Assembly: GCA_963823665.1 (NCBI GenBank)
Contig: CAWGMQ010000004.1
Span: forward strand, 2,112,001-2,176,000
Direction: 5' to 3'
DNA: 64,000 nt
DNA from: an uncultured Planctomycetota bacterium
Lineage (GTDB): Bacteria; Planctomycetota; Planctomycetia; Isosphaerales; Isosphaeraceae
Below are positions 15,270 to 40,882 of the stretch, piece after piece. Each line of letters starts with the position of its first letter. Positions within the stretch are counted from its first letter, which is position 1. Made by a program: the position numbers and the translations under genes. The notes below the pieces were generated by a model, which ran no database searches, was not told the origin of the DNA, and worked only from the letters and a program-made list of their open reading frames with translations.

Positions 15270-15283
15270 GACAACACCTCGCG

Positions 15284-15871: not shown

Positions 15872-15919
15872 CGCTGGTACCTCGGTTCGACTTCGGAATC
15901 GCGACCATCCAACTCTCTG

Positions 15920-15948
15920 ATAGGGGGATCGGAACGATTTCTCAGACG
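15920..15948 (-). promoter_or_regulatory. candidate ECF promoter, copy 2, upstream of the sigma gene (CGTCTGAGaaatcgttccgatccCCCTAT)
   Basis: Same motif and spacing as 38068-38096; ~50 bp upstream of the sigma ATG, consistent with autoregulation. Confidence 0.65.
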
Positions 15949-16039
15949 GGATTTCCATTGAAAGGTTTTCCGCCGAGTTCTGTACGAGATCACAGCGAGA
16001 GAAAGCGCAATGGGCGGAGTTCATGAGCTGTTCGGATTG

Positions 16040-16069
16040 TCTCTGAGATCCCGCCCCATCGACCCCTAT
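16040..16069 (+). promoter_or_regulatory. candidate ECF promoter, copy 3, upstream of the SGNH hydrolase (tcTCTGAGatcccgccccatcgacCCCTAT)
   Basis: Divergent from copy 2; both continue as CCCTATCAG. Confidence 0.5.
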
Positions 16070-16198
16070 CAGCCTACAGAGGGTCGGTGAGCCAAATCCA
16101 ATGATTTCAATACCATCCCTCCGAACACGGGAAGCCGATCGGCGTGCGCACCATCGCTGACCAGGTGTTCCGAACCTTGGTCTCGAATCCACAGGGAG
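16056..16198 (+). repeat. 143-bp imperfect direct repeat, copy A
   Basis: Colinear with 22775-22917 (shared GTGAGCCAAATCCAATGATTTCAAT..CCATCCCTCCGAA, GATCGGCGTGCGC, TGGTCTCGAATCCAC..GGGAG). Confidence 0.9.
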
Positions 16199-16206
16199 AA
16201 ACAACA

Positions 16207-17985
16207 ATGAAACTTGCTCGCAGGAAAAACGATGGTGTCAACCGGTTTGGTTTGAACGGAATCCTCATCATCCTCGGCGTCGGGGCTTGTCTGTTAGTCG
16301 TGGCCTTACAAGTCGATCGCGGGCCCGAACGCTCGGGCGCGAGCGCGTCTGCCCTGCCGCCAGTCCCCGTAAGGATCACCTGGGCCATGGCCGAGCGATT
16401 CGGCCCCGGCTATGACCGCAACCACGACGGCCGGCCCGACCTTCCCAATTCGCACGAATACGTGAACCCTGGTCGATACGAGGTTCATCTCGCCGCGAGC
16501 GTCGGCGCCAGCGCCCAAGCGACCGCGGACATGTCGTGCGTCTGGACGATCGACGGTCCTAATCAAGCGACTGGTCTGTGTGCGGCCGGGCCGAAGCCGG
16601 TGGTCCAGCTCCCGATGGGCACCTACTCCGTGACGGTTACCGTCCACCTTGCCGACGGCCGGGCCGGATTGGCCCGCGAGACAGTCCGCGTGAAGGACAT
16701 CCTGATCGTCGTGCTCGGCGACTCGCTGGCCGCCGGCGAGGGTAACCCTGAGGTGCGCGCGTGCTGGAAGGGGGCGGGGACTTCGGCCCAGACCTGGAAG
16801 CTCCGAGGCCGCCTCGACCCGCCAACGCCCGCCGGATGGGCCTATGGCGGCCCCGGTGGCGATCAGCCCCGTGCGACCCCCGCGGGGATTTTGCCACCGG
16901 CAGACGTCTCGCACGCCACGGCTCATCGCTCGACTCTCTCGGGCCCGGCTCAGTTCGCGAAGCGCCTTGAGGCGGAAGACCCACACACGTCGGTCACGTT
17001 CGTCTGCCTGGCCGCCACCGGCGCGCGTATCGATGAGCTATTCAACAGCGAGCGGTCAGTGTGCAACAAGACCAGGGGGCCGGGGCCGGCACTCCGGGCC
17101 CAGATTGATGAGCTGCACGCGATTGCAGGCTGTCGGCCGGCAGACATTCTTGTCCTGTCCGTCGGCCTCAATGACGCCGGTGGCTTTGAATTGCTGGGCG
17201 AGCTACTTCGCCGGGAGATCCGGTGCGTTGATCCATGCCGTTTGCTCGCGGTCTACCCGACGCGCAAGGAGTGGACGGCGGCCGCGTCTCCGGACCTCGA
17301 GGCCTTGGTCGACCCGACGAAACGCTCGTGGCTAAACGGACTCGAGGCCGACGCCCGGCGCACCGCACTGGTCAAAGACGCCGCCCTGATCTTCGACCTG
17401 GCCGAGATGGCCGCAGCCGGGGTGGCAAGGGCCCGCGAGCAATTCGAACGCCTGACAACAGCGATCGCCAGCGATCAGCTCCTGGCCCAGGCGGAGATCT
17501 ACCTGCTCGAGTACCCCGACCCAACAGGTGACGCAAACGGCACCGCGGGCGCGGCCATGCTGGCGGACCTCGTCCCCGGCTTTCAGGTCAATCGTCGCGA
17601 GCTGGATCTGGCCCACGAGCGCTTGTTGCGTCCCCTGATGATGATGCTCCGTGAGGTGGCCAGCAGCCAGAACTGGACCTGCGTTGACGGGATCTTCACG
17701 ACGTTCCGGAGCCACGGCCCTGCGGCGACGGAAGCCTGGTTCGTGAAGGCGAAGGAGTCAGAGGAGCTTCAGGGCCCGCGCTTGACGCCCCTGGCGTACG
17801 TCCGCGGCGAGTTTTCTCCGGGAATGCTGCACCCGAATCGGCGTGGACATCAGGTCGTCGCCGATCAGTTGTACGAGCGCCATGCGGCGGTCAGGACGGG
17901 TCGGCTCCGGGCACCGCAGGTGGTTTCTCGTGGTCTCTCCAGCTCCGATCAGGTTCGCTTTGGAAGGGACCGGAGGCCTCGCTGA
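16207..17985 (+). CDS. membrane-anchored/secreted PKD-like + SGNH/GDSL hydrolase
   Basis: N-terminal hydrophobic helix; GTYSVTVTV PKD-like strand; block I GDSLAAGEG, block III SVGLND, block V LHPN; GGGAG RBS. Confidence 0.8.
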   Translation: MKLARRKNDGVNRFGLNGILIILGVGACLLVVALQVDRGPERSGASASALPPVPVRITWAMAERFGPGYDRNHDGRPDLPNSHEYVNPGRYEVHLAASVGASAQATADMSCVWTIDGPNQATGLCAAGPKPVVQLPMGTYSVTVTVHLADGRAGLARETVRVKDILIVVLGDSLAAGEGNPEVRACWKGAGTSAQTWKLRGRLDPPTPAGWAYGGPGGDQPRATPAGILPPADVSHATAHRSTLSGPAQFAKRLEAEDPHTSVTFVCLAATGARIDELFNSERSVCNKTRGPGPALRAQIDELHAIAGCRPADILVLSVGLNDAGGFELLGELLRREIRCVDPCRLLAVYPTRKEWTAAASPDLEALVDPTKRSWLNGLEADARRTALVKDAALIFDLAEMAAAGVARAREQFERLTTAIASDQLLAQAEIYLLEYPDPTGDANGTAGAAMLADLVPGFQVNRRELDLAHERLLRPLMMMLREVASSQNWTCVDGIFTTFRSHGPAATEAWFVKAKESEELQGPRLTPLAYVRGEFSPGMLHPNRRGHQVVADQLYERHAAVRTGRLRAPQVVSRGLSSSDQVRFGRDRRPR

Positions 17986-18261
17986 TCGCAAGTGAGGTCG
18001 AACTGGTTTCTGTCCTCGGTACACGATCGGTCGGCCGAGGAGGAGTCAGCCGGGAAGTCAACGTATAATGCCAGTTCTACGATCAATCGATCAGCAAGCG
18101 CTGGGAAGGTGACCCGCTACATGAATCGCGTCCGGTGATCGGTGCAGAAGTTGTGCTGCGGTGATCGGCAGGCGGTGGGCCTGGTGCTGGATGATGGCCA
18201 TTGAGGGAACCACGCTAGAGTGGCAATTTGCACTCAAACGGGGTTTGGGAGAAATGAACCC

Positions 18262-21200
18262 ATGGCCTTGAACCGCACTACTGGCGGTCTCATGCAGGAA
18301 CTCCACCGACTTTTTCGGCGAGCCATAAAGCTCCGCCAACAGGGTCGCTGTCAAGAGGCAATTGTCCGTCTGACTCACGCCCGAGACGCAGCTCGTCGCC
18401 ATCTGGGACTACACCATCCCGCCTATGCCACCAGCCTGAACAACCTAGCATTCCTGTATGCGGAGATGGGGGAATACGCGGTGGCCGAGCCTCTCTTCTA
18501 CGAGGCCCTCGGGATCTACCGCGCGACGCTGGGGGCGAACCACCCCGAGTATGCGGGTAGCCTCAACAACCTGGCGACGTTGTACCGGCATATGGGGGAC
18601 TACGACGCCGCCCAATCACTCTACTGCCACGCCCTGGAGATCCGCCGCGCGGTGCTGGGCGAGCATCACCCCGTCTACGCCAAGATTCTGAGCCACCTCG
18701 CGCTGTTGTACCAGGCGATGGGGGACTACGCGGCGGCCGAGCCCCTCTTCCGCGAGGCCCTCGGAATCTACCGCGCGACGCTGGGCGAGAGCCACCCCGA
18801 CTATACCGGCAGCCTAGACAACCTGGCGGGGCTGTACTGCGCGATCGGAGACCACGCGGCGGCCGCGCCCCTCATCCGGCTGGGGCTCGAAATCGTTCGC
18901 GCGGCGCGGGGTGATGACCACCCCGACTACGCCAGAAGCCTGGACCGCCTGGCGGGGCTGTATTGCGCGATCGGAGACCACGCGGCGGCCGAGCCCCTCT
19001 GTCGCCAGGCCCTGGAGATCCGCCGCGACGCGCTGGGCGAGAGTCACCCCGACTATGCCGCCAGCCTGAACAGCCTGGCGGCGCTATACTGCGCGATCGG
19101 GGACTACGTGGTCGCCGCGTCCCTCATCCGGCTGGGGCTCGAAATCATTCGCGCGGCGCGGGGTGACGACCACCCCGACTACGCCAGGAGCCTGGACAGC
19201 CTGGCGGGGCTATATTGCGCGATCGGGGACTACACCGCCGCCCTACCTCTCCACCGCCACGCCCTGGAGATCCGCCGCGCCGCGCTGGTCGAGAGTCACC
19301 CCGACTACGCCGCCAGCCTGGACAGCCTGGCGGGGCTGTATTGCGCGATCGGGGACCACGCAGCCGCCGCGCCCCTCTACCGCCAGGCCCTGGAGATCCG
19401 CCGCACGGCGTTGGGCGAGGACCACCCGGACTACGCCACCAGCCTGAGCAACCTCGAGGGGGTGTACCGAGCGATGGGGGACCACGACGCCGCTTTGCAT
19501 CTCTGCCGCCAGGCGCTGAAGATCCGCGGCACTGCGGTAGGCGAGGACCATCCCTCCTATGCCACCAGCCTGAACAGCCTGGCGGGGTTGTGCCGGGAGA
19601 TGGGGGACTACGACGACGACGCCACCAGCCTGAACAGCCTGGCGGGGCTGTATTGCGCGATCGGGGACTACGCGGCCGCCGCGCCCCTCTACCGCCAGGC
19701 CCTGGAGATCCGCCGCACGGCGCTGGGCGAGGACCACCCGGACTACGCCACCAGCCTAAGCAACCTGGCGGGGGCGTACCGAGCGATGGGGGACCACCCC
19801 GCCGCTGCCACCGGCCTGGACGGCCTGGCGGGGCTGTATTGCGCGATCGGGGACTACGACGCCGCCCTATCACTCTACGGCCGGGCCCTGGAGATTCGCC
19901 GCACGGCGCTGGGCGAGGACCACCCGGACTACGCCACCAGCTTAAGCAACCTGGTGGGGGTGTACCGAGCGATGGGGGACCACGCCGCCGCTTTGCACCT
20001 CTGCCACCAGGTGGTGCTGGAGATCCGCCGCACCCCGGCAGGCGAGGACCATCCCTCCGATGCCACCGGGCTGAGCAGCCTGGCGGGGTTGTGCCGGGAG
20101 ATGGGGGACTACGCCGCCGCCGTATCACTCTACGGCCGGGTCCTGGAGATCCGCCGCACGGCGCTGGGCGAGGACCACCCGGACTACGCCACCAGCCTGA
20201 GCAACCTGGCGACGTTGTACCAGGACACAGGTGACTACGCCGCCGCCCTAGCGCTCCACCGCCGCGCGCTGGAGATCCGCCGCGCCGCGCTGGTCGAGAG
20301 TCACCCCGACTATGCCGCCAGCCTGAACAGCCTGGCGGGGCTGTATTGCGCGATCGGGGACCGCGCGGCGGCCGCGCTCCTCTACCGCCAGGCCCTGGAG
20401 ATTCGCCGCACGGCGCTGGGCGAGGACCACCCGGACTACGCCACCAGCCTAAGCAACCTGGCGTGGGTGTACCGAGCGATGGGGGACCACGCCGCCGCTT
20501 TGCACCTCTGCCGCCAGGCCCTGGAGATCCGCCGCGCCGCGCTGGTCGAAAGTGACCCCGACTATGCCGCCAGCCTAGACAACTTGGCGGGGCTGTATTG
20601 CGCGATCGGGAACTACGCGGCCGCCGCGCCCCTCTACCGCCGGGCCCTGGAGATCCGCCGCACGGCGCTGGGCGAGGACCACCCGGACTACGCCACGAGC
20701 CTGAGCAACCTGGCGACGTTGTACCAGGACATAGGTTACTACGCCCCCGCCCTAGCCCACCACCGCCAGGCCCTGGAGATCCGCCGCACCGCCTTGGGCG
20801 AGTGCCACCCGCACTTTGCCATCAACCTGAGAAACCTGGCGGACTCGTGGGCCGCCTTGGGCCGAGCCTGGCTGGCTATGCCCCTCATGGAACAGCTCGC
20901 GTCCATCGAGGACCGGATGATCGGACAGGTCTTCGCGATCGGTTCCGACAGGCAGAGAATCGCATACCTCAGGACGGTCCTGGGCAATCTTCACACGTTC
21001 TTGTCTCTGGTACAGCAACACCTCGCCGACTCCCCCGCAGCCATCCGCGCCGCCCTAGACCTGGTATTGCGCCGTAAGGCGATCGCGGCCGAGGCGCTGG
21101 CCACCCAGCGCGATGCCGTGCTGGGAGGCAAGTATCCCGGATTGGAGCCCAAACTACGCGAGCTCGCCGCCCTGCGGCTGCAGATCGCCCGCAAGACACT

Positions 21201-22809
21201 CGCGGGGCCTGGACCGGAAGGTCTCGAGCCTCATCTGCAACAGCTCGCCGAGTGGAACGCACAGAAAGAACGGCTGGAAGCCGAGCTGGCCCAGCAGATC
21301 CCCGAGATGAATCTGGAGCGGAAGCTACGCGCCTCTGACCGTCGCGCCGTCGCGCTGGGCCTACCGGAGGGGGTCGTCCTGGTCGAGTTCGTCCGGTTTT
21401 CTGTCTTCGATTTCCAGGCGGTGCCGGCCCGAGGCGAGCCGCGATGGAAGCCGGACCGGTACGTCGCTTTCGTTCTGCCGGGCGGCGAGCCGCTTGAGGT
21501 GCAAATGATCGAGCTAGGCGAGGCCGAGCCGATCGACCAGATGATCGCTGACTTCCGGGCCGGGATCATCGCCGAGGCCACGGCGGGCAACGGCCGCGAC
21601 ATGGCGAAACGGCGGCGTGATGCCCCTTCGACCGTCGAAAGCGATGTCGACCTGGCCCTGCGAGCGGTGGTATTCGACAAACTGGCTCCGGCACTCGGGA
21701 ATCGAACGCACCTCCTGATCGCTCCAGATGGCGACCTGACCAGGCTCCCCTTCGAGGTCCTGCCCACGGCCAATGGCCGCCGCTTGATCGACGACTACCA
21801 GATCAGTTATCTGAGCTGCGGCCGTGACGTGCTCCGGTTCGGGGCCGGTGCTACTGGCCAGCCTGGCAAGCCGCTGATCGTCGCCGACCCCGATTTCGAC
21901 CTCGAAACGGTCACCGTGCCCGAGCCGGCGCTGCCCAAGGCTGGTTTCTGGTCCCGCTTACTCGGCCGCGGCGAGCAAGCCACGGGGACGCCAATGCCAT
22001 CGGTCCCGGCGGTCGCAACCACCGCTCGCTCCACCGGGCGTCATTCGCGCGACCTGGACCGCGACCGGAGTGCTTATCATTTCCATCGTCTGCCGGGGAC
22101 CCGGGCCGAGGGGGAGCGGGTCGCAGCCCGACTTGGTGTCTCCCCCTGGCTCGACGCCACGGCCCTGGAAGGCCGGCTCAAGACCGCTTGTCGGTCGCCA
22201 CGGATACTCCACCTCGCCACGCATGGCTTCTTCCTGTCCGATCAGGAGTGCGACCTCAACCGCGAAGGCCGGGGCCTCGGGTTCGACTTCGGAGAGCTCT
22301 CCGGCGCGGCGGACGGACTGGTACGGCTCTCGGGCCCGACGATGGAGAACCCCATGCTCCGCTCGGGTCTGGCGCTGGCCGGGGCCAACACTTGGCTCAA
22401 GGCCGGCAACCTGCCCGAGAAGGCCGAGGACGGCTTTCTGACTGCCGAGGACGTCACCGGGCTGGACCTGCTGGCCACGGAGCTGGTCGTGCTCTCGGCC
22501 TGCGAGACGGGGCTGGGTCAGGTCCACGTCGGCGAGGGGGTCTTCGGCCTGCGGCGAGCGTTCGTCCTGGCTGGGGCCAAGACTTTGGTCATGAGCCTGT
22601 GGAAGGTGCCGGACGAGCCGACCCGCGAGCTGATGGAGGACTTCTACGGGCGACTGCTCGCCGGCCGAGGCCGCGCCGAGGCACTGCGCGAGGCGCAGCT
22701 CGCGATGAAGGCGAAATACCCCGACCCATTCTATTGGGGTGCCTTCATCTGCCAGGGAGACCCATCACCCCTCGCCATCGACCTCCACCAACCTATAGGT
22801 GGTTCGTGA
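18262..22809 (+). CDS. TPR-CHAT protease
   Basis: About 20 42-aa TPR repeats (LGEDHPDYATSLSNLA); CHAT with IAPDGDL, LPF, LHLATHG (His), VLSACETG (Cys), SLWKV, YWGAF; start codon uncertain (18220/18262/18292). Confidence 0.95.
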   Translation: MALNRTTGGLMQELHRLFRRAIKLRQQGRCQEAIVRLTHARDAARRHLGLHHPAYATSLNNLAFLYAEMGEYAVAEPLFYEALGIYRATLGANHPEYAGSLNNLATLYRHMGDYDAAQSLYCHALEIRRAVLGEHHPVYAKILSHLALLYQAMGDYAAAEPLFREALGIYRATLGESHPDYTGSLDNLAGLYCAIGDHAAAAPLIRLGLEIVRAARGDDHPDYARSLDRLAGLYCAIGDHAAAEPLCRQALEIRRDALGESHPDYAASLNSLAALYCAIGDYVVAASLIRLGLEIIRAARGDDHPDYARSLDSLAGLYCAIGDYTAALPLHRHALEIRRAALVESHPDYAASLDSLAGLYCAIGDHAAAAPLYRQALEIRRTALGEDHPDYATSLSNLEGVYRAMGDHDAALHLCRQALKIRGTAVGEDHPSYATSLNSLAGLCREMGDYDDDATSLNSLAGLYCAIGDYAAAAPLYRQALEIRRTALGEDHPDYATSLSNLAGAYRAMGDHPAAATGLDGLAGLYCAIGDYDAALSLYGRALEIRRTALGEDHPDYATSLSNLVGVYRAMGDHAAALHLCHQVVLEIRRTPAGEDHPSDATGLSSLAGLCREMGDYAAAVSLYGRVLEIRRTALGEDHPDYATSLSNLATLYQDTGDYAAALALHRRALEIRRAALVESHPDYAASLNSLAGLYCAIGDRAAAALLYRQALEIRRTALGEDHPDYATSLSNLAWVYRAMGDHAAALHLCRQALEIRRAALVESDPDYAASLDNLAGLYCAIGNYAAAAPLYRRALEIRRTALGEDHPDYATSLSNLATLYQDIGYYAPALAHHRQALEIRRTALGECHPHFAINLRNLADSWAALGRAWLAMPLMEQLASIEDRMIGQVFAIGSDRQRIAYLRTVLGNLHTFLSLVQQHLADSPAAIRAALDLVLRRKAIAAEALATQRDAVLGGKYPGLEPKLRELAALRLQIARKTLAGPGPEGLEPHLQQLAEWNAQKERLEAELAQQIPEMNLERKLRASDRRAVALGLPEGVVLVEFVRFSVFDFQAVPARGEPRWKPDRYVAFVLPGGEPLEVQMIELGEAEPIDQMIADFRAGIIAEATAGNGRDMAKRRRDAPSTVESDVDLALRAVVFDKLAPALGNRTHLLIAPDGDLTRLPFEVLPTANGRRLIDDYQISYLSCGRDVLRFGAGATGQPGKPLIVADPDFDLETVTVPEPALPKAGFWSRLLGRGEQATGTPMPSVPAVATTARSTGRHSRDLDRDRSAYHFHRLPGTRAEGERVAARLGVSPWLDATALEGRLKTACRSPRILHLATHGFFLSDQECDLNREGRGLGFDFGELSGAADGLVRLSGPTMENPMLRSGLALAGANTWLKAGNLPEKAEDGFLTAEDVTGLDLLATELVVLSACETGLGQVHVGEGVFGLRRAFVLAGAKTLVMSLWKVPDEPTRELMEDFYGRLLAGRGRAEALREAQLAMKAKYPDPFYWGAFICQGDPSPLAIDLHQPIGGS
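18400..20860 (+). repeat. 126-bp TPR tandem array with high internal identity
   Basis: Repeating GCCCTGGAGATCCGCCGC...GAGGACCACCCGGACTACGCCACCAGCCTG units; boundaries approximate. Confidence 0.9.
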
Positions 22810-22917
22810 GCCAAATCCAATGATTTCAATGCCATCCCTCCGAAGAAGCGAAGTCGATCGGCGTGCGCGCCGCCTCTGAGCAGGTGTTATGAGCCCTGGT
22901 CTCGAATCCACCGGGAG
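22775..22917 (+). repeat. 143-bp imperfect direct repeat, copy B
   Basis: Same length as and colinear with 16056-16198; overlaps the last codons of TPR-CHAT. Confidence 0.9.
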
Positions 22918-22920
22918 CGG

Positions 22921-25900
22921 TCAACACGGTGTGACTGTTTTCTCGACCCGAGCCCACGGATCGGCGAAGCAGCAGTAGGCCAGCCAAGTGGGATCATTCG
23001 GGAATCGCAGGCGTACGCGGTGCCTCGCAGCCAACATGACCTCGCTGATGGGCAATCCCTGAGACATCAACTCGTAGAAGGCTTCGGCGAACACAAAGGC
23101 TGCCTGATCGGTGACCGGCCATAAGGTCCCCACGAACCCGCCACAGCCTAGCTCGACGAGTCGGGCGCCCCACGAGCCCAGGCGTGTGAGGGAGAAGCCG
23201 ATCCGCCCACTATGGCAGGTGTTGAAGAAGATTAGCGGCGAAGCCCCGCGCATCGCTCCGACGATCCGTGTTGAAAGCTCGGCTACACGGAATTCGCCAT
23301 CTTCCATGCGTACGGCGGAGGCGTCTGCGGCGAACGTTCCTCCGAACGCTCCGTGACCGATCAGGTGGAGAAGATCAAATCCCCCGCGTTCGAAGGCATC
23401 GATCAGCTCGAGCCGGCGGGCTGGGAGTACCCGGACCTGGGCGCCGGAAGCCTCCAAAGAGCGAAGGATGGCTAACTCTTCATCAGCAGACTCGAGGCCG
23501 AATTCGGTGCGTCGATCGGCAGACTCAATGTAACACGCCGTCTTGTCGGCGAGCAGGACCATGTCACGGGTCAGTTCCGGTCCTCTCTGCGGCGCAGCTA
23601 CCCCTCCCTGAGCCATGGCAAAAATGCGGTTGAATGAGAACCGCTGGACTGGCGGTCTTCCGCGCAGCCACCGTGTCAGTGCAAAAGCCTCCCCCCAGAA
23701 CACGTCCTCGGCAATCAGCTCCCCCGCGATCGGATCGGTCCGGTAGGGCTTGATCAATTCCCAGGGGATGTGCGGTTCATCGGACAGGATCAAGACTTTC
23801 CTGATTCCTCGTTGGCGGAAGGTCCAGCACATGTCTTGCAACGTCTTGGGAAGGACCTGGTCGAAGAGATTGCAGCCCACCCTGGCAAGCGTTGCTGAGA
23901 CGTCCTCGATCGATATGCCGGGTTGGCTCGCGAGCGATCCTAACGCGTGGAGTTGATTTTCGACCCAGTCCGCGACATCGGTGTTGAGGTCTTGCGTCCC
24001 CAGATCGCCGTCCAGGACCGGGAGGTCCTTCAACCTCGGATCTGTCGATGAAATGACGAAGTGCAGCCGACCGGCTAGCCCGGAATGACGGTGTTGAAAG
24101 ACCTTGATGACCAGGTCGGGAGCGTCAAGGCCGGGCCCCGATCCGAGGTTCAGCTCCGCTCCCGTCGCAGCGCGATCCGGCGAGTCTTCTAGATCGACAG
24201 CGACCACGTCGGGAGCTAGGTCCACGGAACCAACCGGCCGGCCTGATTGGGCGAAGTCAATCATCACGCGGCCCGGACCGACTTTCCTTCCCCGGAGACG
24301 AAAGACGGCCGCGGGTGACTTTTCTAGCAGCGGTACGATGATCTCAGCCCTGGCCGGACCTTCGATCTCAAAATTCTCGGCGGCTACATCGATGGTCACA
24401 CGGATGTCCGGCGGCGGTTTCCCAGGCTCGGTGGGCTGCGAGACGAGGAGCGACATCGTCACGTCATGGTCGTGCGGCTTCGCAAGCTTCTTGACTTCGC
24501 CGGTGGGAAGTGTTTTCTCGGCCAGAATGATCTGCACGCGCAGGTTGTAGGATTTAGCAACGTGAACCCTGGCTGGGAATGAAATATCGGTGTGTCGCCG
24601 GATTGATTCGGACGATGCGACGTTAGGTGCCGGGTTGGCTTTCTCTTCGGACGTTTCGGGATTCAAAAACTGCAAGCAGCAGCGGGCACGGGCAATGGCC
24701 TGCTTCATATAAAGGTGAGAGTTCTGGATTGCGATGGCGGCATCGCAGGCTAACTTGGCCAGCAAATCCAGGTCTTCACGGCTGAATTGCTTCCGGTCGG
24801 TGGTGTCGACTTGGATGATCCCGAGCGCTTGCTGATCGGGGATGAGTAGAGGGGCGCACATTACCGAGCGAATCTTGAGATCGGTGATGGAAGCGCTGGT
24901 CGGAAAGTTCATGTCGGCATCGACTTCAGTGCTCAAGATCGCCTTCTTCTGTCCCAGCACTTCATTAACCAGCGACTTGCTGAGCTTCCACTGGGTCTCG
25001 CCATCCGGAGTCGCCGTGGCGACTCTCATGTTCTTTTCGGTCCGGTATTTGAAGGCCGTGCGCAGCAATCGATTGGACATCGGGTCATCCAGGCATAGGA
25101 AGAGCTGCTCGGCCTGGGGGAAAAGCTCCATTAAAGAGTCGAGGATCTTGGACGCGAGCATGTCAATTGTGAGGTCGCTTGAAGGATCGGGGATGCACCG
25201 GGGCTCTCCGGGATCTCTCCGACGTTCGGGATATACGAAGGTCGCGATCTCTTCGGTGCTCAGAAATGCTGTGCCCTTTCGAGCCGACACCGCATACTTG
25301 ATGATGGCGATGAGCGCTTGGAAACATGGACCGGGGTACTCATGGTTGTAGGCGGGGGGGGCATGAAGAGGTAATCGCCCTGCGTGGAAGTCCGACAGAT
25401 GGCCAGCCAGGCGGCATAGCTCTGTGTAGATGGCCACAGGGGGCTGACGGCCTGGATAGGTGATCGCCTCCAGGCATGAAGACACGCCGTTAAGTGCTGA
25501 CAGTTTACGCAGCCGTTCGGCCTGATGTTGCGGCTCGTCCAATCGCGGACCAAGTAATTCTTTGGTCTTTTCCCACTCGAGTAACATGTTGACTTTCTCG
25601 AGGTACGCACCCTCGAGCGCGAGATCGCCATCGGCGAGCTGCCGGGACAATCTGATGATGTCGTCGAGTAACGCACCCTCGAGTGCGAGATCGCCATCGG
25701 CGAGCAGCCGGTACAATCTGTCGACCGCATCGCGAATGGCGTCAACGAGCGAGCGTAACTCCTGCAACAAAGGTGGCCAGGCGCCGATCACCAGTAAAGG
25801 CGGCATCATCTGCACGTTGATTTCCGGTGGCCCCTCCGGCGACAATTGCCAGATGTAACACAATGGCGAGATCTCGAAGCCCGTAGGTTCGCTGTGCGAG

Positions 25901-26271
25901 ATGAGCAACCGAGCTTTCGGACGCTGTGCTTTGACCGAATCGGCCTCGCTCGCGCTGCTGCTCTTTTCTCGTTCACCTTCGAGATCCTCTTTCCGGCCAG
26001 CAGACCCGATGTCGGCGCCCATTCGCTTAAAATTGGTCTGGCTCGGGAGTAACCCAGAGGTTGTCAGGTAGACGATGACCCAGTTGCGACCGGCTAGTAA
26101 ACTCCGCACGTCAACTGGGTCGACAATCGAATCATTCTGGATCGACACCTCGGTACCGTCTTTGAAACGGATCTGGCACGAGCGTACTGACACCCAGCCA
26201 TTGGCGAGCGCAGTCGTATCCAGTTCAAGGGAGCGCAAACCCCAATTGAAAGAAGACGAATGGTCGTCCAT
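22921..26271 (-). CDS. chimeric TssK-like / GAF / beta-domain / CHAT protease
   Basis: N-terminal NWGLRSLELDTTALANG...RFKDGT, PPLL, YTELCRLAGHL..PAYNH resemble T6SS TssK; IRSVMCAPL..GIIQVD..FSREDLDLL..AAIAIQN is GAF-like; CHAT IPWEL, LLHLIGHG, FFNTCHSG, GTLWPV. Confidence 0.75.
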   Translation of the reverse strand: MDDHSSSFNWGLRSLELDTTALANGWVSVRSCQIRFKDGTEVSIQNDSIVDPVDVRSLLAGRNWVIVYLTTSGLLPSQTNFKRMGADIGSAGRKEDLEGEREKSSSASEADSVKAQRPKARLLISHSEPTGFEISPLCYIWQLSPEGPPEINVQMMPPLLVIGAWPPLLQELRSLVDAIRDAVDRLYRLLADGDLALEGALLDDIIRLSRQLADGDLALEGAYLEKVNMLLEWEKTKELLGPRLDEPQHQAERLRKLSALNGVSSCLEAITYPGRQPPVAIYTELCRLAGHLSDFHAGRLPLHAPPAYNHEYPGPCFQALIAIIKYAVSARKGTAFLSTEEIATFVYPERRRDPGEPRCIPDPSSDLTIDMLASKILDSLMELFPQAEQLFLCLDDPMSNRLLRTAFKYRTEKNMRVATATPDGETQWKLSKSLVNEVLGQKKAILSTEVDADMNFPTSASITDLKIRSVMCAPLLIPDQQALGIIQVDTTDRKQFSREDLDLLAKLACDAAIAIQNSHLYMKQAIARARCCLQFLNPETSEEKANPAPNVASSESIRRHTDISFPARVHVAKSYNLRVQIILAEKTLPTGEVKKLAKPHDHDVTMSLLVSQPTEPGKPPPDIRVTIDVAAENFEIEGPARAEIIVPLLEKSPAAVFRLRGRKVGPGRVMIDFAQSGRPVGSVDLAPDVVAVDLEDSPDRAATGAELNLGSGPGLDAPDLVIKVFQHRHSGLAGRLHFVISSTDPRLKDLPVLDGDLGTQDLNTDVADWVENQLHALGSLASQPGISIEDVSATLARVGCNLFDQVLPKTLQDMCWTFRQRGIRKVLILSDEPHIPWELIKPYRTDPIAGELIAEDVFWGEAFALTRWLRGRPPVQRFSFNRIFAMAQGGVAAPQRGPELTRDMVLLADKTACYIESADRRTEFGLESADEELAILRSLEASGAQVRVLPARRLELIDAFERGGFDLLHLIGHGAFGGTFAADASAVRMEDGEFRVAELSTRIVGAMRGASPLIFFNTCHSGRIGFSLTRLGSWGARLVELGCGGFVGTLWPVTDQAAFVFAEAFYELMSQGLPISEVMLAARHRVRLRFPNDPTWLAYCCFADPWARVEKTVTPC

Positions 26272-26404
26272 TGGCGTGGAGTCTGCACTCCCCTCGTCAG
26301 GGCAATGCTTCTACGTCGCCCTGGAGCAAGGCGTTGGGACCGAGGCGTTCTGTTCGATTATCCTCGCCTCGGAGCCGGCGGACTAGTGGAGTGCCCCCAT
26401 CTGG

Positions 26405-27266
26405 TCATTGCGGCCGAACCGCACCGGCGCTACGATGAACCTTGGCCGGCGCGGAGGCACACGCACCGCAGGGGTTCGCGACGCCAGGCGGTTGGCGAAT
26501 TCTCGTCTCGAACTGGGATTCTGATCGGGCCCCGATGCCGGCCGTTCATTTCGCGCTGCGCCGGAGGTTTGTTTGGAGAAGATCAAGGTCCTGCTCTTTG
26601 CCGCGAACCCGCGTGGCACAGGCCCGCTTGATCTGGCGCGCGAGTTCCGGGAGATCGACGAGGAAGTCCGCCTGGCGACGTTCCGCGGCGCGGTTGAGCT
26701 GATCCTCGTTCCCGGTACCCGGCCGGTTGATCTGCTGCGCAAACTCAACGAGAACCAGCCGCAGGTTGTGCATTTCAGCAGTCACGGCAGTCCGGATGAG
26801 ATCATCCTTGAATCCGGGGAGCCAGAGGTCGAGTCTTCAGATTTGGACGCTGCTGTTCTCCGTTCGGCTGATGAACGGGACATGAAGAAGGTGGGCTCGG
26901 AAGAGGTCGTCGGCTTCGGCCAGGGCGAGCCTCAAGTGGTCAGCAAGTCGGCGCTCGTGAATGTGCTGCGGTCCTGCAACGAGGGAAATCTCCGGCTGGT
27001 GGTGCTGAACGCCTGCAGCACCCGGCCGCAGGCCGAGGCGCTGACCGAAGTCGTCGACTGCGTGGTGAGCATGAACCAGACCATCACGGACCGGGCAGCG
27101 ATCAAGTTCGCGGCCTCGTTTTATGGGGCGCTGGCGTTTGGTCGCTCGGTGCAAAAGGCGTTCGAGCAGGGAGTGGCGCGGTTGAGCGCGGAAGGGATCG
27201 CTGAGTCGGATACGCCTGAGCTGCTGGTGCGGGCGGGTGTCGACGCCGCGCAGGTTGTGCTGGTGG
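26405..27266 (+). repeat. ~860-bp duplicated cassette (upstream region + CHAT domain), copy A
   Basis: Colinear with 30449-31310 at a constant offset of 4044 bp, including ~170 bp upstream of the TTG start. Confidence 0.95.
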
Positions 27267-29374
27267 GCTCGGCGGCGGGCGATGGTGGCGAGATTGCCGC
27301 CGGATACTTCGCCGTGCAGCGCGAGGCTATCGAGGAACACGTCCGACGATTCGTCGGCCGCGTTGCCGTCTCGGAGGCTCTCGATCGATTCTTGGCACGA
27401 GAGTCGAGGGGTTATTTCGTTATCCGCGGTGCGCCGGGCCAGGGCAAATCGGCGGTTGCATGTCACTTGATCAAGTCCCGGGGCTGGCCGCATCATTTGA
27501 TCAACCGGACGGGTGGCCGATCAGATGTACGCTTGATTCTCCGGTCACTTATCGCGCAGCTCGCGCCCAGGCTGGAGCCGGACCGGACCCTACCCGATTC
27601 AATTCCGGAGCTGGCCAAGTCGTTCGAGGATCTGCTAGCCCGAGCCACCGCGAAAATTGGTCGACTCGTCCTCGTCGTCGACGCACTTGATGAGCTCTCC
27701 GAGGGAGCAGGCCCGGATCCGCCGTTCCTGGTTACCGAGGGGCTGCCGGCGAACGTGTACGTGATCGTGACGGCGCGCCCCGGGGATCGTCTCGATCAAC
27801 TTCTCGAAGCGCTCCACTCCACACCGCATGAGCTCTACGACCTCGGTCCGCTTGAACCTCACGAGGTCGGCGCAATTCTCCGCGCTGGGCGCCCGGACTT
27901 CGGCGATGCGAGGATTGCTCTGGCCGGGAAAGCGTCCAAGGGCAACCCGCTCTTTCTGCGAGCTGTCGCCGACGCGCTCGAGCGCGACCCGAATTATGAC
28001 CTACGCGACCTGCCCTCGTCAGTCGAAGGATTCTTCCGGCGGGCGGTCGGCGGGCTGAGCGGCCGGCGCGATCCCCTGCTGACCGACGTGCTGGGATTGC
28101 TGGCCGCGGCGCTCAAACCGCTCGCGCTGCGCGAGCTGGCCCAGATTACCGGGACGACACAACGGGAGATGCACGACAGGGGTATCCGCCCCATCCGCCA
28201 ATTCCTGCTCGAAGTCGACGAAGGTTACAGCTTTTACCATGCCCGATTCCACGAATTCGCCGTGCACGAATTGCTCTACGAGGACGAGTTGCCCCGTTTT
28301 CACGCGAAACTGGCGTCGTGGCTGCGCCGTCCCGAGTGCTTATCGTCGAATTATCGGTATCTTGCGCTGGCGCATCACCTCGGCCGAGCCGGCGACCGCG
28401 ATGGGTTGTGGGCGACGGTCGAGCCCGGCTTCCTCCGCGAGAAGATCCGGCGATTTGACTATGGCGTGCTGGAGGACGTGGCGCTCCTGGCCCGTGACGC
28501 GATCGACACCGGCGACCCGAGCCTTGTGGGACGTTGCATTGAACTGGTCGAGGGTCTGCGTGAGGTCGCCGGTGGTGACCTCATCGACGAGGCCCGCCGC
28601 GCCATTCAGGGCCGTCGTCTGGTCGTAACTGCAAAGCGAAATCGGATCGAAGCCCCCGATCCACCGCGCATCCCAGGGATGGACCTCTACATCGGCATGC
28701 TCCCCAAGTCGACCGTGGGGGCTGACGTCGTGGAGGCCCTGCGGACCCGGGACGGCCTCATTCTAGCCTTGGGTGACGCGCCCGGAGTAGGACTTAAGGG
28801 GGCGTTCGTCGCGCGATTCGTCGGCGGCCTCGTGCGTCGTCTGGCAGAGCAGCCAGGGGCGTTGCATTTGAATGAGCTCTTGGAGGAAGTCGACCGGATC
28901 CTCTCGCCACATCCTTTTTTCGACCTCATCTCGCTCCAATGCGTGGCCGTGAACTCCGCGACGGGCACGCTTACCATCGCCGGGGCTGGTCATCCGCACC
29001 CTGTCCTGTACTCGCCCCGCCGTGGGCGGTGCGACCGCTTACCTGTCGGGGACGACTTGCTACTGGCGCGGCAGCGAGTCGGTGACTCGTCCGCCCGTCG
29101 GCGCCAGCGCCACTTCGAGATTCAACCGCGCGACGTCCTGATCATGGTCTCCGACGGGCTGACGGAGGGTCACGGCATGACCGCCCTACCATACGGCTAT
29201 CGCTTCGAGAGGATGATCCCGGCTCTTTCTCACCTGGGTACCCGGGCGATCGGCGAGGCCATACTCGAGGACTGGCTGGCCCACTCGGAGGGTGCCGACT
29301 ATGTGGACGACGTGACGGTCGTCGTTCTGGCGATGAATGAGAATGGCCCAAAAGAGTCCCCTCCAGAGGAATGA
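26573..29374 (+). CDS. CHAT - STAND (NACHT-like) NTPase - SpoIIE/PP2C phosphatase
   Basis: VLLFAANP, HFSSHG, VLNAC; Walker A GAPGQGKS, Walker B LVLVVDALDE, GNPL; PP2C motifs VGAD, GDAPGVG, AGAGHP, SDGLTE, DDVTVV; GGAGG RBS. Confidence 0.88.
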   Translation: MEKIKVLLFAANPRGTGPLDLAREFREIDEEVRLATFRGAVELILVPGTRPVDLLRKLNENQPQVVHFSSHGSPDEIILESGEPEVESSDLDAAVLRSADERDMKKVGSEEVVGFGQGEPQVVSKSALVNVLRSCNEGNLRLVVLNACSTRPQAEALTEVVDCVVSMNQTITDRAAIKFAASFYGALAFGRSVQKAFEQGVARLSAEGIAESDTPELLVRAGVDAAQVVLVGSAAGDGGEIAAGYFAVQREAIEEHVRRFVGRVAVSEALDRFLARESRGYFVIRGAPGQGKSAVACHLIKSRGWPHHLINRTGGRSDVRLILRSLIAQLAPRLEPDRTLPDSIPELAKSFEDLLARATAKIGRLVLVVDALDELSEGAGPDPPFLVTEGLPANVYVIVTARPGDRLDQLLEALHSTPHELYDLGPLEPHEVGAILRAGRPDFGDARIALAGKASKGNPLFLRAVADALERDPNYDLRDLPSSVEGFFRRAVGGLSGRRDPLLTDVLGLLAAALKPLALRELAQITGTTQREMHDRGIRPIRQFLLEVDEGYSFYHARFHEFAVHELLYEDELPRFHAKLASWLRRPECLSSNYRYLALAHHLGRAGDRDGLWATVEPGFLREKIRRFDYGVLEDVALLARDAIDTGDPSLVGRCIELVEGLREVAGGDLIDEARRAIQGRRLVVTAKRNRIEAPDPPRIPGMDLYIGMLPKSTVGADVVEALRTRDGLILALGDAPGVGLKGAFVARFVGGLVRRLAEQPGALHLNELLEEVDRILSPHPFFDLISLQCVAVNSATGTLTIAGAGHPHPVLYSPRRGRCDRLPVGDDLLLARQRVGDSSARRRQRHFEIQPRDVLIMVSDGLTEGHGMTALPYGYRFERMIPALSHLGTRAIGEAILEDWLAHSEGADYVDDVTVVVLAMNENGPKESPPEE

Positions 29375-29377: not shown

Positions 29378-30319
29378 ATGGCAACGAGAAAGCCCACTCT
29401 CTTCTCGACAGAGTCCGTTGGCAACGTAGCCGTTTTTCGGATCGAGACGACGACGTTGTTCGACGAGCGTGACGTAAAACGTTTGTTTGACGAACTCGCT
29501 GAGGCCATCGGCCCGCGTTCACAAATCATCGTTGATCTGGCGCAAGTTCTTCATATGAGCAGCACGGCCCTATCAAAGCTGGTACTGATGCATAGGCAAT
29601 CAAGAATCAGAGGGGGCCAGGTCGTCCTGTGTAACTTGGCACCGAAAGTGAGCGAAGCGTTCCGGACCAGCAAGCTCGACAAGTTGTTTGAGATCGCGTC
29701 GAGCCTGGAGGAGGCCCTGGCCGCCCTGCACTGGTCCTTGGAGGTCAGGTGCCCAATCGCGGGTTGTGAGGGGACCAGTCTGTCCCACGAACCATCCATA
29801 GCCGAGCAGGGAGGAGTGCAGTGCTGCCGGTCATGTGGCTGCCGGTTCTGGTTGGCTCCGTTCCAGCTCTCCCCGCGCGGCGAGGCCCGGGTCGCGGTGT
29901 CGCGCTTCGCGATCCCTACCTATGAGCAGGAGCAGATTCGCGCGGCGCTCGGTGTCATCGTGGTTTTTGATATCGTCGGCCGGCTGGACCTATTCGCCTC
30001 CGAGGCGTTGGTCGACGCCTGGCGGTCCGTGCCACAGTCGTGTCGTGCTTTGCTCGATCTCCGCGCGGCGACGGAGTTGAGCGAACCGGGCCTTCGTTTG
30101 CTCAAGGGGCATGTCGGCATCAATAATACCTCGCCCAATCGGATCGTCGTCTTGGTCGACCAAGATCGGTTTACTCGAACGCACGCGATTATTTCGAATG
30201 CTTGCATCACGACCAACCACGACGAAGCAATGTCCGCACTGCACGGTTCTCTTGCATCGGACGAATCGCCGACTCCTCTCATGGTGCTGGCGCGAAAGGT
30301 CGACACAACGATGGAATAA
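29378..30319 (+). CDS. STAS (anti-sigma antagonist) - Zn ribbon - second STAS-like domain
   Basis: IIVDLAQVLHMSSTALSKL...GQVVLCNL..KVSEAF..SKLDKLF; CPIAGC...CRSC; second GRLDL...LLDLRAATELSEPGL; starts 3 bp after the PP2C gene stop. Confidence 0.82.
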   Translation: MATRKPTLFSTESVGNVAVFRIETTTLFDERDVKRLFDELAEAIGPRSQIIVDLAQVLHMSSTALSKLVLMHRQSRIRGGQVVLCNLAPKVSEAFRTSKLDKLFEIASSLEEALAALHWSLEVRCPIAGCEGTSLSHEPSIAEQGGVQCCRSCGCRFWLAPFQLSPRGEARVAVSRFAIPTYEQEQIRAALGVIVVFDIVGRLDLFASEALVDAWRSVPQSCRALLDLRAATELSEPGLRLLKGHVGINNTSPNRIVVLVDQDRFTRTHAIISNACITTNHDEAMSALHGSLASDESPTPLMVLARKVDTTME

Positions 30320-30448: not shown

Positions 30449-31310
30449 TCATTGCGGCCGAACCGCCGCCGCGCTACGATGACCTATGGCCGGAGCGGTA
30501 GCCGAAATGCCTGAGCAGTTCGCGGCGCCAAGAACGCGGCAAATTCTCTTCTGAAACTGGGATCCTGAACCAGTTCAGACGAGGGCCATGCATTTCACGC
30601 CGTGTCGGAGGTCCGTTTGGAGAAGATCAAGGTACTGCTCTTCGCCGCGAATCCGCGGGGCACAGCACCGCTTGATCTGGCGCGCGAGTTCCGCGAGATC
30701 GACGAAGAAGTGCGTCTGGGCACGTTCCGGAGCGCGGTTGAGCTGATCCTCGTTCCCGGCACGCGGCCGGTTGATCTGCTGCGAAAGCTCAACGAAAACC
30801 AGCCACAGATCGTGCATTTCAGCAGTCACGGTAGTCCGGACGAGATCGTCCTCGAATCCGGGGAGCCAGAGGCCGCGGATGTGGGTTTGGGCGGCGCCAT
30901 TCTTCGTTCGGCTGATGAACGGGACATGAAGAAGGTAGGCCCGGTCGAGGTCGTCGGCTTGGGCCATGGCGAGCCTCAAGTGGTCAGCAAGTCGGCGCTT
31001 GTGAATGTGCTGCGTTCCTGCAACCAGGGTAATCTCCGGCTGGTGGTGCTGAATGCCTGCAGCACCCGGCCACAGGCCGAGGCGCTGACAGAGGTCGTTG
31101 ACTGTGTTGTAAGTATGAATCAGACCATCACGGACCGGGCAGCAATCATGTTCGCGGCCTCGTTTTATGGAGCGCTGGCATTTGGTTGCTCCGTGCAAAA
31201 GGCGTTCGAGCAGGGAGTGGCGCGGTTGGGCGCGGAGGCGATTATCGAGTGCGACACGCCTGAGCTGGTGATAAGGAGGGGAGTTGACGCCGCGCAGGTC
31301 GTGCTGGTTG
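30449..31310 (+). repeat. ~860-bp duplicated cassette (upstream region + CHAT domain), copy B
   Basis: See copy A at 26405-27266. Confidence 0.95.
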
Positions 31311-34300
31311 GACTGGCACCGAAAACGCCTGCGACCCCGGCCCCCGAGGCTTCGTTCATCGTACCATTTCCGCGGAACGGCGAGTTTGTCGGACGGGATG
31401 GCGACCTGCAGCGGCTGCATGCTCAATTGTCTGGTCCGGGATCGGGCCCGGTCGGCATCCGCCCGGCTGGTCTGACTGGGATGGGCGGCATTGGCAAGAC
31501 CCAGCTCGTGGTCGAGTACGTGTACCGACATCGGGACGATTATCCGGATGGCATCTTCTGGATCGACGCGGCCGGACCTCTGGCTGAAGGCTTTGCCAGG
31601 CTGGCGACGGATCATCGTTTGCGCTGGGCCGAGAACGAACAGCCTCGCGATGAGCAGATTCAGGCGGTGTTCAAGACGTTCGACTCCAGGCCACGAGCGC
31701 TACTGGTGCTCGACAATCTACCTGACCCGTCGGCATTAGCTGTCTCGCTTTCAACTGGCTGTGTACCGGAGGATTTGCGCTGCCGGGTGCTGTTCACAAC
31801 GCGCCGGCACGACCTGGGGCGGTTTGTGGGGATTGAAGTCACGATCCTGCCCGAGGAGCCGGCTTTGCAGCTCCTGCTTCGGCACCCCTCACGCCGCGCG
31901 GCTCTGATACCATCCCATACCGATCACGAGCACGCCCGCGCAATTGCGCGGATGCTCGGCCGCTTACCCCTGGCGCTGGAGCTGGCTGGGGCATACCTTG
32001 GCAAGTACAGCGCCGAGGTCTCGCTCGAGGACTATCGCGAGGGGCTGAAGTCCGACGGGGCTTTGGCGACGCTCAATGCCGATGCCGCCGAGTTGACCGA
32101 GGCCGACCTGAGGCGGGTGCACGACCCCGCCGTGGCGGCGACGATCGGCGAACAGTGGGCGTCATTGCGAGACGAGTCGGCCCGGCTGCTGCTACAGGTT
32201 GCAAGTCTTTTTTCGGAATCGACCGCGGTGCCGATCGTGCGACTCGGCCTGCTGGCGGGTTTCAGTGACGAGGCGCGGCCGGGACGGCGCTCGCCGCTGC
32301 GCCGTACGGCGCAGCGGCTCGATGACGCGTGTCTGATTGAGCGGTTGGAAGGGGACCAACTTCGGCTGCATCCGTTGATACGTGAGTTTGCTCGCGGTCA
32401 GATGTCTGCGGACCAGATCGACCAATTCGTGTGCGCATGCCTGGCTCGCGTGGCCACGGCAATTGAAGAGTGTAAGACGCTCGAAGCGCTGTATGCGGAG
32501 CGTGGGGTGGACTCTCTCCAGGAAGATCTGATCGCTTTCCTCGAATTGTGTAAGGTATCGGCTTCGGATCTCTTAGCCCGGCTCCAGATCGTTTTACGGC
32601 TCATGCAGCAGGAGGCTCACAACCTTCGTGGTGGCCAAGCAAAAACCAGCCCGACGTATTTTGCTCAACAGGTCCGGAACCGGGCGGTGCTTTTGAGCAT
32701 CGCCCCTCTTCGCGGAAGTGCAGAAGCACGACTCGCCGCGCTCGCCGAGCCGCACTTTGCATTGCAATGGACGGCGAGCCGTGAATCGCGAGATTTGATC
32801 CGTACACTGACCGGCCACGGAGACTGGGTCAGCGCAGTGGCGGTGAGCCGCGACTCCCGTCACGCCTTCTCTGGTTCTGGAGACCGCACGCTGAGGTTGT
32901 GGAATCTGCGAACGGGTCAACTCCTGCGCACATTCACGGGACACGAGCATACCGTGAAGGCTGTGGCGGTGAGCCCAGATGGCCGACAAGTTCTATCAGG
33001 TTCGCACGACTGCACGCTGAGACTTTGGGATGTGGAAACCGGTGGTCTTCTCAACACTTTCACAGGCCACGCGGGCATGGTGTTCGCGCTGGCGATGAGC
33101 CCCGACGGTCAACAGGCCGTCTCAGGCTCGCGCGATTGCACGCTCAGGCTCTGGGACCTGCAGACTGGCCAGCTCTTGCGCACCTGCGTGGGCCATGAAG
33201 ACGGGGTATGCGCGGTTGCGATTTGCCCAGACGGACGCCGTGCCTTTTCCGGTTCGCGCGATCGCACAGTGAGGCTGTGGGACCTTCAGACGGGTCGGCT
33301 CCTCCGTACCCTCACGGGCCATGACGATATGGTCTTCGCCGTGGCGGTTAGCCCCGATAGCCGGCACGGCCTCTCGGGCTCCGAGGATCGCACACTGAGG
33401 CTTTGGGACCTGCAAACCGGCCAGCTCCTTCGCACATTCGCTGGCCACGAAGGCGGAATAAATGCAGTGGCGATGAGCGCTGACGGCCGCCACGGCCTCT
33501 CGGGCTCCGAGGACCGCACACTGAGGCTTTGGGACCTACAAACCGGGCGGTTCCTTCGCACATTCGCCGGCCATGAGCATGGGGTGGGTGCAGTGGCGAT
33601 CGCTCCTGACGGGCGACATGTTCTCTCGGGGTCTGATGACCGCACCGTCAAGCTCTGGGATCTCGTGGCCGGCCACTCTCCACCGATCACCAATGGACAC
33701 GCCAGCGCTGTGAGCGTGGTGGCGATGAATCTGAATACTCGCCAGGCTCTCTCCGGCTCGCGCGATTGCACGCTTCGACTCTGGGACATGCGAACCGGCC
33801 TGCTCGTGCATTCGTTCAGCGGGCACGAGAGCGAAGTGAATGTAGTGACGATCTCGCCTGACGGACGTCATGCCCTATCCGGCTCCTACGACCGCACCCT
33901 CAAGCTCTGGGATCTGCGGACTGGCCAACTCGTCCGCACATTCGCAAGCCGCGAGGGTTCGTATGGTGTGATAGCGGCAAGCCCCGACGAACGCGATGCT
34001 CGCTCCGGTTCCCTGCACCACACCCTGAATTTTTGGGACCGTCGATACGGACGGTTAATGCGGACAATTCACCGCACGCTAAAGCTATCGGCGCTTCGGG
34101 CACTGCAACAATGGGTCCTCTTATTGAACCATTCGCAGTGGGTAAATGCCGTGGCTACAACTTCCAACGGCCGCTGCGCCCTCACGGGTGCGCAGGACGG
34201 CACACTCAAACTCTGGGATTTGCGGACCGGTTATCTCATTCGCTCTTTCGTCGGCCACACGAATGCTATTGCTACGGTGGTGGCGGCATCCGATGACCAC

Positions 34301-34687: not shown

Positions 34688-34690
34688 TCG

Positions 34691-40813: not shown

Positions 40814-40882
40814 AACGGGAAGCGAATTAGGTTCTGTTCGAGCTACAATCACAAGTCGAGCTGAAGGAGAGGAGGACGAGCC

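Follow-up and report, generated by a model that had tools for sequence, protein, structure and literature searches.

What is a fragment of TssK, a type VI secretion system (T6SS) baseplate protein, doing at the head of a protease, in a genome that holds no other match to TssK? The question is raised by a 64,000-nucleotide stretch of DNA (the window; positions 2,112,001 to 2,176,000 of contig CAWGMQ010000004.1, assembly GCA_963823665.1) from an uncultured planctomycete of the Isosphaeraceae. A gene on its minus strand (22921..26271) encodes, in one open reading frame (ORF), a protein of 1116 amino acids (aa) that joins a TssK fragment to a GAF domain, an Ig-like domain (DUF7363) and a CHAT protease. 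The reading we favour, and to which we give an even chance, is that the Ig-CHAT part is a protease of a conflict cascade equipped with an N-terminal capture slot, and that TssK is disarmed, drifting cargo in this slot of high turnover.

The TssK portion, aa 1-330 (25282..26271, minus strand), matches the Pfam family T6SS_VasE (PF05936; residues 6-330, E 3e-29) and scores 117 bits against TIGR03353 (cut-off 100), and residues 41-310 of the TssK chains in the PDB align with aa 9-328 of the fusion. An AlphaFold model of aa 1-330 (pLDDT 79) matches TssK 6n38 (E 5e-14), although this model, for which 24 native TssK and two fusions were aligned, may overstate the fold. Over its full length the fragment is 27-34% identical to native TssK of the host's bacterial family. 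The resemblance to TssK that the original prediction had read from the sequence alone is thus borne out by profile and by predicted structure. The GAF domain that follows, likewise noted before (aa 364-521; 24709..25182, minus strand; Pfam match aa 368-517, E 4e-10), has its origin in the FHA-GAF-SpoIIE phosphatase family; the host genome has two ORFs of the FHA-GAF-phosphatase kind (L004 and L005), to which it is 58-61% identical.

Further fusions were sought with aa 1-335 as query among proteins of 613-1,953 aa, and two JGI proteins, P0003 and P0004, proved to have the architecture TssK-FHA-GAF-Ig-CHAT, with the same domain order, truncation and insertion as this copy at ~50% TssK identity. 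The fusion is real, and since two further proteins share its architecture, the misassembled or chimeric contig about which the original prediction had been wary is refuted and retains a negligible chance. Confirmation of the junctions by reads, which it had proposed, was not obtained: four DNA runs yielded short identical pieces, and no contig bridged the TssK-GAF or any other domain junction. The shares of these runs are small and carry no habitat information, and among the runs listed for the gene none is of RNA. A 4,115-bp Logan contig, possibly from the same sample, encodes an identical aa 1-870 and is frameshifted afterwards; at the site of aa 870 the frame of the window agrees with the family, W868, R870 and G871 being invariant in 30/30. 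When 7,999 candidates of 613-2,153 aa were scanned with a profile of the three fusions, no fourth one came to light.

We also asked what remains of the T6SS in the host. Its genome (G000; 16.5 Mb, 12 contigs, 91.9% complete) matches TssK in the fusion ORF alone and has no match to TssC, TssF or TssL, an absence that is not proven at this completeness; one weak Hcp-family match lies in an ORF not resembling Hcp. The window contains no T6SS gene cluster besides the fusion, in agreement with the earlier remark that no T6SS lies nearby. Among other genomes of the family, TssK is matched in 73 of 120 and TssC in 52 of 85.

By profile, sequence and predicted fold, the fragment keeps the shoulder beta-sandwich and helical neck of TssK (TIGR03353, PF05936; PDB 6n38, 5mwn). 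Unlike TssK, it bears two insertions, is under relaxed constraint, is fused to a protease in a genome without a T6SS match, and lacks, as had been noticed, the extreme N-terminus (~30 residues, native residues ~4-32) and the entire head, stopping at the neck-head boundary. In native TssK, TssG binds a cavity formed by the N-terminal 15 residues of the trimer, cutting off 17 N-terminal residues abolishes TssG binding, and the head binds TssL and TssM (PMC6300606); PMC8406304 agrees on these docking surfaces. The TssG-binding ~17 residues are missing in 3/3 fusions and present in 24/24 natives. With both docking surfaces gone, the captured fragment is, to judge from its sequence, unable to act as TssK.

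The three fusions share the N-terminal loss of ~30 residues, the head loss and a ~24-aa insertion, and their TssK parts form a single long-branch clade (support 100/100), which indicates that they stem from one capture event. In P0003, the native first residues are joined to a stretch near residue 33, suggesting that the TssG-binding start was removed by an in-frame deletion later than capture. Two further changes, seen by comparison with P0003 and P0004, appear to have arisen in this copy after capture. The FHA domain that both relatives keep between TssK and GAF has been deleted, a loss that the original prediction had missed, and aa 331-363 (25183..25281, minus strand), aligned with these FHA-bearing proteins, form a junction with a remnant of it. 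In the neck, which has gained ~46 extra residues, this copy alone carries a 66-nt (22-aa) in-frame tandem duplication (25587..25718, minus strand; D12, 85%); a contig of run X2 (25597-25747) is identical over most of it.

A retained shoulder and neck could serve oligomerisation, the TssK trimer setting the spacing or threshold for proximity-driven CHAT activation in the manner of GAF dimers or of the sheath and tubulin polymers of relatives. Native TssK 1-315 is trimeric (PMC6300606), the fragment ends at the neck-head boundary with its fold predicted to be kept, and SAVED-CHAT activates its CHAT via filament formation (10.1101/2023.06.23.546230); a weak residual constraint on the fragment would also fit selection on its fold. 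We nevertheless consider this explanation improbable: the N-terminal segment that lines the cavity at the trimer axis is deleted, the neck is enlarged, most other N-termini in the family are kinases or sigma factors, and the model that predicts the fold rests on an alignment of native TssK.

We then compared the rates at which the parts have changed. Among the three fusions, identity is 50-56% for TssK and 51-58% for GAF, rising to 73-80% for Ig and 87-91% for the CHAT core. Fusion pairs agree at 57-65% of 82 columns conserved in natives, against 88-89% for native pairs, and at 41-44% of 79 variable columns, against 16-34%, the reference being 103 native TssK pairs of 48-64% overall identity. 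Most of the TssK-specific constraint appears lost, selection being mostly relaxed with a weak residual constraint. The TssK parts of all three fusions are open, whereas simulated free drift introduced ~5.5 stops per pair over 280 codons and left no stop-free run in 200, so that read-through has been selected.

The C-terminal part presents a different picture. Its 561 aa were modelled at a pLDDT of 88 and a pTM of 0.89. What the original prediction had called a beta-rich domain is, in this model, an Ig-like sandwich (aa 556-695; 24187..24606, minus strand) comparable to macroglobulin and complement domains (Z about 9); the Pfam match to DUF7363 (aa 623-685) falls under the cut-off. The CHAT protease (aa ~715-1110; 22942..24129, minus strand) has a Pfam match at aa 903-1087 (E 3e-14), and its model aligns with separase (Z 25.2, rmsd 4.1, 320 aligned) and Csx29 (Z 23.2, rmsd 3.7, 302 aligned). 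Profile, predicted separase-like fold and the dyad of predicted catalytic His973 (23353-23355) and Cys1019 (23215-23217) all assign it to CHAT (PF12770), in line with the intact-looking CHAT dyad noted before. A search of the ESM Atlas with aa 555-900 matched unnamed clusters and weak CHAT clusters, nothing else.

Searching with aa 555-1116 yielded 161 proteins, 120 of them listed, from which we analysed this protein together with the 104 best full-module matches (P0003-P0106; n = 105); the frameshifted copy and the 15 weakest of the listed matches were excluded. Among the matches listed, the closest titled relatives are Planctomycetota. Across the family alignment, a 560-aa Ig-CHAT module begins at a sharp boundary and the His-Cys dyad is intact in 104/105 by alignment count, and ahead of the module stand N-termini of 4 to 1,176 aa, which fall into 34 similarity groups among the 101 longer than 60 aa; the four shorter than 60 aa may include partial proteins. 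The C-terminal Ig-CHAT is conserved while the N-terminus is swapped, a variability that the original prediction had proposed to test in homologues of the C-terminal ~570 aa. By labels that we assigned by hand, the N-termini comprise kinases (44), sigma factors (13), TssB-TssC (6), three each of TssK, TssM-like (two of these only through likeness to P0044), TPR, AMP-binding, ubiquitin-like and FHA, two each of kinase-GAF and STAS, single cases of DnaK, STAND, WD40, RRM, tubulin-like and TIR, and 14 others. T6SS parts thus fill 12 of the 105 slots. On the module tree (FastTree) the types lie dispersed, TssB-TssC in four places and TssM-like in three; such scatter can reflect exchange after few captures, and the count is accordingly one of at least three T6SS genes rather than of twelve events.

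The other captured parts are also altered. The five long TssC captures lack TssC residues 1-55 to 1-70 and match 57-86% of invariant columns (the short P0063 left out), compared with 91-100% in 29 natives. Of 49 captured kinases, seven are partial and 20 of the remaining 42 are without one of four catalytic residues, a count that probably includes one misalignment and has no fair control. As far as sequences tell, the family has the make-up of a conflict protein, a constant core with diverse, often inactive borrowed domains. The captured sheath genes of P0007, P0009, P0026, P0027, P0063 and P0066 are rearranged: four join TssB ~35-135 to TssC ~71-491, and in three of these the N-terminal arm of TssB (~2-27) sits after TssC, a resemblance to circular permutation that hints at a circular intermediate in capture. 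In P0111, outside the analysed set, TssL (DotU) stands where CHAT would be, behind a truncated module (kinase-DUF7363), and ties a fourth T6SS gene to the module.

The close module is rare, occurring in 3 of 120 other family genomes, with two of the three copies interrupted, and in 1 of 400 genomes sampled in the class (three candidates scored per genome). A profile search of the full library, with 36 new proteins scanned, extended the family to distant members whose N-termini include vWA, pentapeptide and chitinase types, among others. Distant homologues adjoin TPR-CHAT genes at L051, L074, L076 and L079. In the slot at L075 lies a bDLD3 domain common to STAND and TIR neighbours, and at L045 a ubiquitin-like domain common to an E1/E2/RING operon. 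Apart from this fusion, none of 54 module loci contained a T6SS gene; many of these loci are short or distant, with only six distinct planctomycete loci longer than 12 kb.

Rarity and interruption, together with the frameshift of the Logan contig beyond aa 870, would fit a gene that is, as a whole, a decaying by-product of gene shuffling without current function. We regard this as very unlikely, given a CHAT core 87-91% identical beside an N-terminus at ~55%, a dyad preserved almost throughout the family, and TssK parts that have all stayed open.

The recurrence of T6SS captures (TssK 3, TssB-TssC 6 and TssM-like 3 of 105, plus the TssL of P0111) suggests another possibility, namely that the slot carries integrated baits or decoys: disarmed copies of host domains would bind proteins of an invader or signal foreign machinery, for instance a phage tail or an incoming mobile T6SS, and so activate the CHAT. 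The losses lie on assembly surfaces (the start and head of TssK, the start of TssC), nearly half of the complete captured kinases lack a catalytic residue, true adaptors occupy the slot of distant homologues, and the 54 loci without T6SS genes weaken proximity as an explanation. A bait, however, should retain the surface it mimics, and here the residues conserved in TssK are decaying and the site for TssG has been lost; TssK and the sheath, moreover, remain inside the attacker. None of three parts of the protein matches PHROGs, the viral contigs contain no relative, and one of four kinase domains in the window is dead too. Precedent exists in captured inactive domains proposed as decoys in other conflict systems (PMC7159879) and in defence proteases fused to DnaK-like and EccC domains (PMC12642450). 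On balance we rate baits as possible but rather unlikely. With respect to the original prediction of a captured decoy or sensor, capture itself and the recurrence of T6SS parts stand; in that form it is unlikely to be a decoy for parts of the baseplate, since TssK-specific constraint is mostly lost and the TssG-binding segment is absent. A broader formulation, which we hold only tentatively, would make the Ig-CHAT family a bacterial domain-capture immune receptor that samples the host proteome, including T6SS parts, trims assembly surfaces and fires a cascade linked by a shared R-D-M motif when its fast-evolving baits contact an invader.

In the reading that we favour, the Ig-CHAT protease would be the working unit and one link of a caspase-like proteolytic conflict cascade, which the surrounding cluster would encode with its TPR-CHAT, two NTPase-CHATs, caspase-kinase, kinase-DUF4384 and sigma factor. 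Illegitimate recombination with other genes of the host would refill the N-terminal slot. In this lineage, an ancestor would have acquired FHA-GAF and the 5' part of a native tssK, the head being left behind and an internal deletion taking out the TssG-binding start, such that the TssK piece would now provide a translation start and folded, drifting cargo without a TssK job. By analogy with the path from SAVED-CHAT to PCaspase with kinase and sigma outputs, Ig-CHAT may be a zymogen, activated by cleavage of the R-D-M loop or by clustering; its neighbours might serve as activators and substrates, and the output might be defence or cell death. This reading draws on the fast TssK beside a conserved CHAT, the lost constraint, the FHA loss and duplication, N-termini akin to flanking genes, a host without a T6SS match, members nearly without an N-terminus, the recurrence of R-D-M, and the fact that cascades of CHAT, caspase, kinase and sigma factor are established (10.1101/2023.06.23.546230).

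Several observations weigh against it. T6SS parts, from at least three genes, are by our estimate far above the genome share of such genes, and capture by simple proximity is unsupported, as the 54 module loci lack T6SS genes besides this fusion. Adaptors shared with neighbours in distant homologues mean that the slot can be a real input. The gap between conserved and variable columns in TssK identity is 0.15-0.24, where neutral simulation gives 0.02-0.03 +/- 0.08 (P = 0.06, 0.01-0.02 and <0.01 for the three non-independent fusion pairs), so that a little constraint remains, and the fast change of the captured TssK may instead be diversifying selection. Furthermore, PADLOC returned no match for the fusion protein.

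Several genes surround the fusion. On the plus strand lie a TPR-CHAT protease (18220..22809), a CHAT-AAA/NACHT-SpoIIE protein (26573..29374), a STAS protein (29378..30319), a CHAT-NTPase-WD40 protein (30602..34687; WD40 by Pfam, CHAT by family match, P-loop read from the sequence) and a caspase (C14)-pseudokinase-kinase (34654..37947); on the minus strand lie a kinase-TPR protein (10973..13303), a kinase-DUF4384 protein (13719..15287) and a sigma-70 (ECF-type) factor (15284..16207) whose true start is probably internal, all assigned by Pfam unless stated otherwise. The kinase of the kinase-DUF4384 gene is 58-62% identical to the N-termini of P0005 and P0006, and several family N-termini of the kinase, sigma, CHAT and TPR kinds are 40-80% identical to cluster neighbours, so that the slot often takes its content from its own type of cluster.

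An R-D-M motif recurs in these proteins. In the fusion it occupies aa 902-904 (23560..23568, minus strand), in a loop of varying length and low confidence (pLDDT <65) that we regard as a candidate processing site; in the module, R is kept in 98/105 and D/N in 100/105, and the flanking loop columns are mostly <30% conserved. RDM is present in all four CHATs of the cluster and on each side of DUF4384, a candidate substrate, and RNM lies in the caspase linker. Across 11 cluster proteins with 8,783 aa in all, RDM, a motif picked after being seen, occurs six times, where shuffles give 0.76 (0/2,000 reach six). At L067 the module and the neighbouring DUF4384 protein each read RDF. A locus-specific code is weakened: in two further clusters the DUF4384 proteins bear other Arg motifs, and 15 of 17 parsed CHATs (of 22 matches) in the genome carry R[DN][MLFIV], a loose pattern sought within a 240-aa window, near the catalytic His. 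CHAT proteases cleave after Met in Csx30 (M427; 10.1101/2022.08.17.504292) and after Leu in Runella (L247; 10.1101/2021.06.07.447441), and orthocaspases cleave after Arg (PMC7475262); by analogy, either end of R-D-M could be the cut site.

Known immune CHATs (Csx29/TPR-CHAT, SAVED-CHAT with PCaspase, PCk and PCc-sigma, and the Runella gasdermin CHAT) share the separase-like fold, predicted here, and the His-Cys dyad, and their systems resemble this cluster in its caspase, kinases, sigma factor and DUF4384 protein; DUF4384 also forms the C-terminus of some Csx30 substrates (10.1101/2022.08.17.504292). Unlike them, this protease is preceded by Ig-like DUF7363 and has a hypervariable N-terminal slot. 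No Pfam match to SAVED, Cas7-11/Cas10, cyclase or gasdermin was found in 14 window proteins scanned, and the weak PADLOC SAVED_CHAT matches of two neighbours cover the CHAT part only. Captured-domain conflict systems (VMAP and related ternary systems, PMC7159879; DnaK/EccC protease modules, PMC12642450) are similar in their constant core, variable and often dead borrowed domains, occurrence in large-genome lineages, and the bDLD3 adaptor found here in a distant homologue. They differ in that the constant core here is an active-looking CHAT, and T6SS structural parts as cargo were not encountered in the available text of either work. The MoxR AAA+, vWA and EACC1 components of VMAP and iSTAND cores were absent from the same 14 proteins, and CATRA/CATASP components did not turn up in general Pfam scans, no search having been aimed at them.

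In the literature searched, we found no TssK-CHAT fusion, DUF7363 or account of the Ig-CHAT family, which subscription papers and supplements could still list. The original impression of an undescribed architecture holds to that extent; the general logic, in which a constant core takes up cell domains that are often inactive and may act as decoys, has been published for other systems (PMC7159879, PMC12642450). The family offers, with one conserved protease and more than 30 kinds of N-terminus, a tractable test of whether borrowed, broken domains are baits or passengers, and the captures of TssK and TssB-TssC can be traced stepwise through truncation, insertion and loss of constraint. Should they be baits, the N-termini tell which host machines are targeted by invaders in soil planctomycetes; if passengers, the family still records fast domain capture in giant bacterial genomes. 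The shared R-D-M would make a multi-protease cascade immediately accessible to biochemistry. Plant NLRs with integrated domains are a parallel by analogy, not homology, in that host domains, fast-evolving and often pseudo-enzymes, sit on an immune core, and a domain-capture receptor, if that is what the family is, would be their prokaryotic counterpart.

Additional observations concern the gene and its surroundings. Two codons 5' of the ATG, an ACG (in the region 26272-26296, minus strand) aligns with the start Met of P0003 and is better spaced from a purine-rich ribosome site, and the start codon may have shifted from this position; a promoter scan gave a result at chance level. A 149-nt direct repeat (83%; 16050-16198 and 22769-22917) flanks a GDSL-like gene and the TPR-CHAT gene, dividing the fusion gene from the minus-strand sigma, kinase-DUF4384 and kinase-TPR genes, and the 6.7-kb block between the copies may be an insertion. 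With only two copies in the genome, the repeat was rejected as a cassette site of genome-wide use. At 26405-26704 and 30449-30748, a leader and CHAT N-terminus occur in duplicate (79%), joined in one gene to AAA-SpoIIE and in the other to NTPase-WD40; here the shuffling has gone the opposite way. Elsewhere in the genome, L138 (G000 C11:44001-64000) and L139 (C7:825001-845000) are further kinase or DUF4384 clusters with tandem TPR-CHAT genes, one of them with a sigma factor.

In other genomes, L045:175-11662 places a module with a ubiquitin-like N-terminus opposite an operon of ThiF (E1), E2, RING, trypsin and WD40 genes, and L075:9482-17103, from a gammaproteobacterial metagenome-assembled genome, brings together bDLD3-CHAT, bDLD3-STAND-FGS and TIR-bDLD3, the bDLD3 adaptor being treated in PMC8195603. 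Three native T6SS loci have a gene of ~1,280 aa head-to-head with tssK (L102:15594-19442, L104:15040-18882, L106:15286-19086); its product looks caspase-like by eye, and the single one scanned has no Pfam match at 1e-5. Within the window, the minus-strand gene at 8105-10324 encodes a protein of 739 aa that bears a helicase-associated C-terminal domain (PF13625) and gives no helicase core match. Finally, STAND-WD40, kinase-WD40 and TPR frames at 39900-56000 are split into several ORFs and are followed by a split transposase-like gene (57210-58649).

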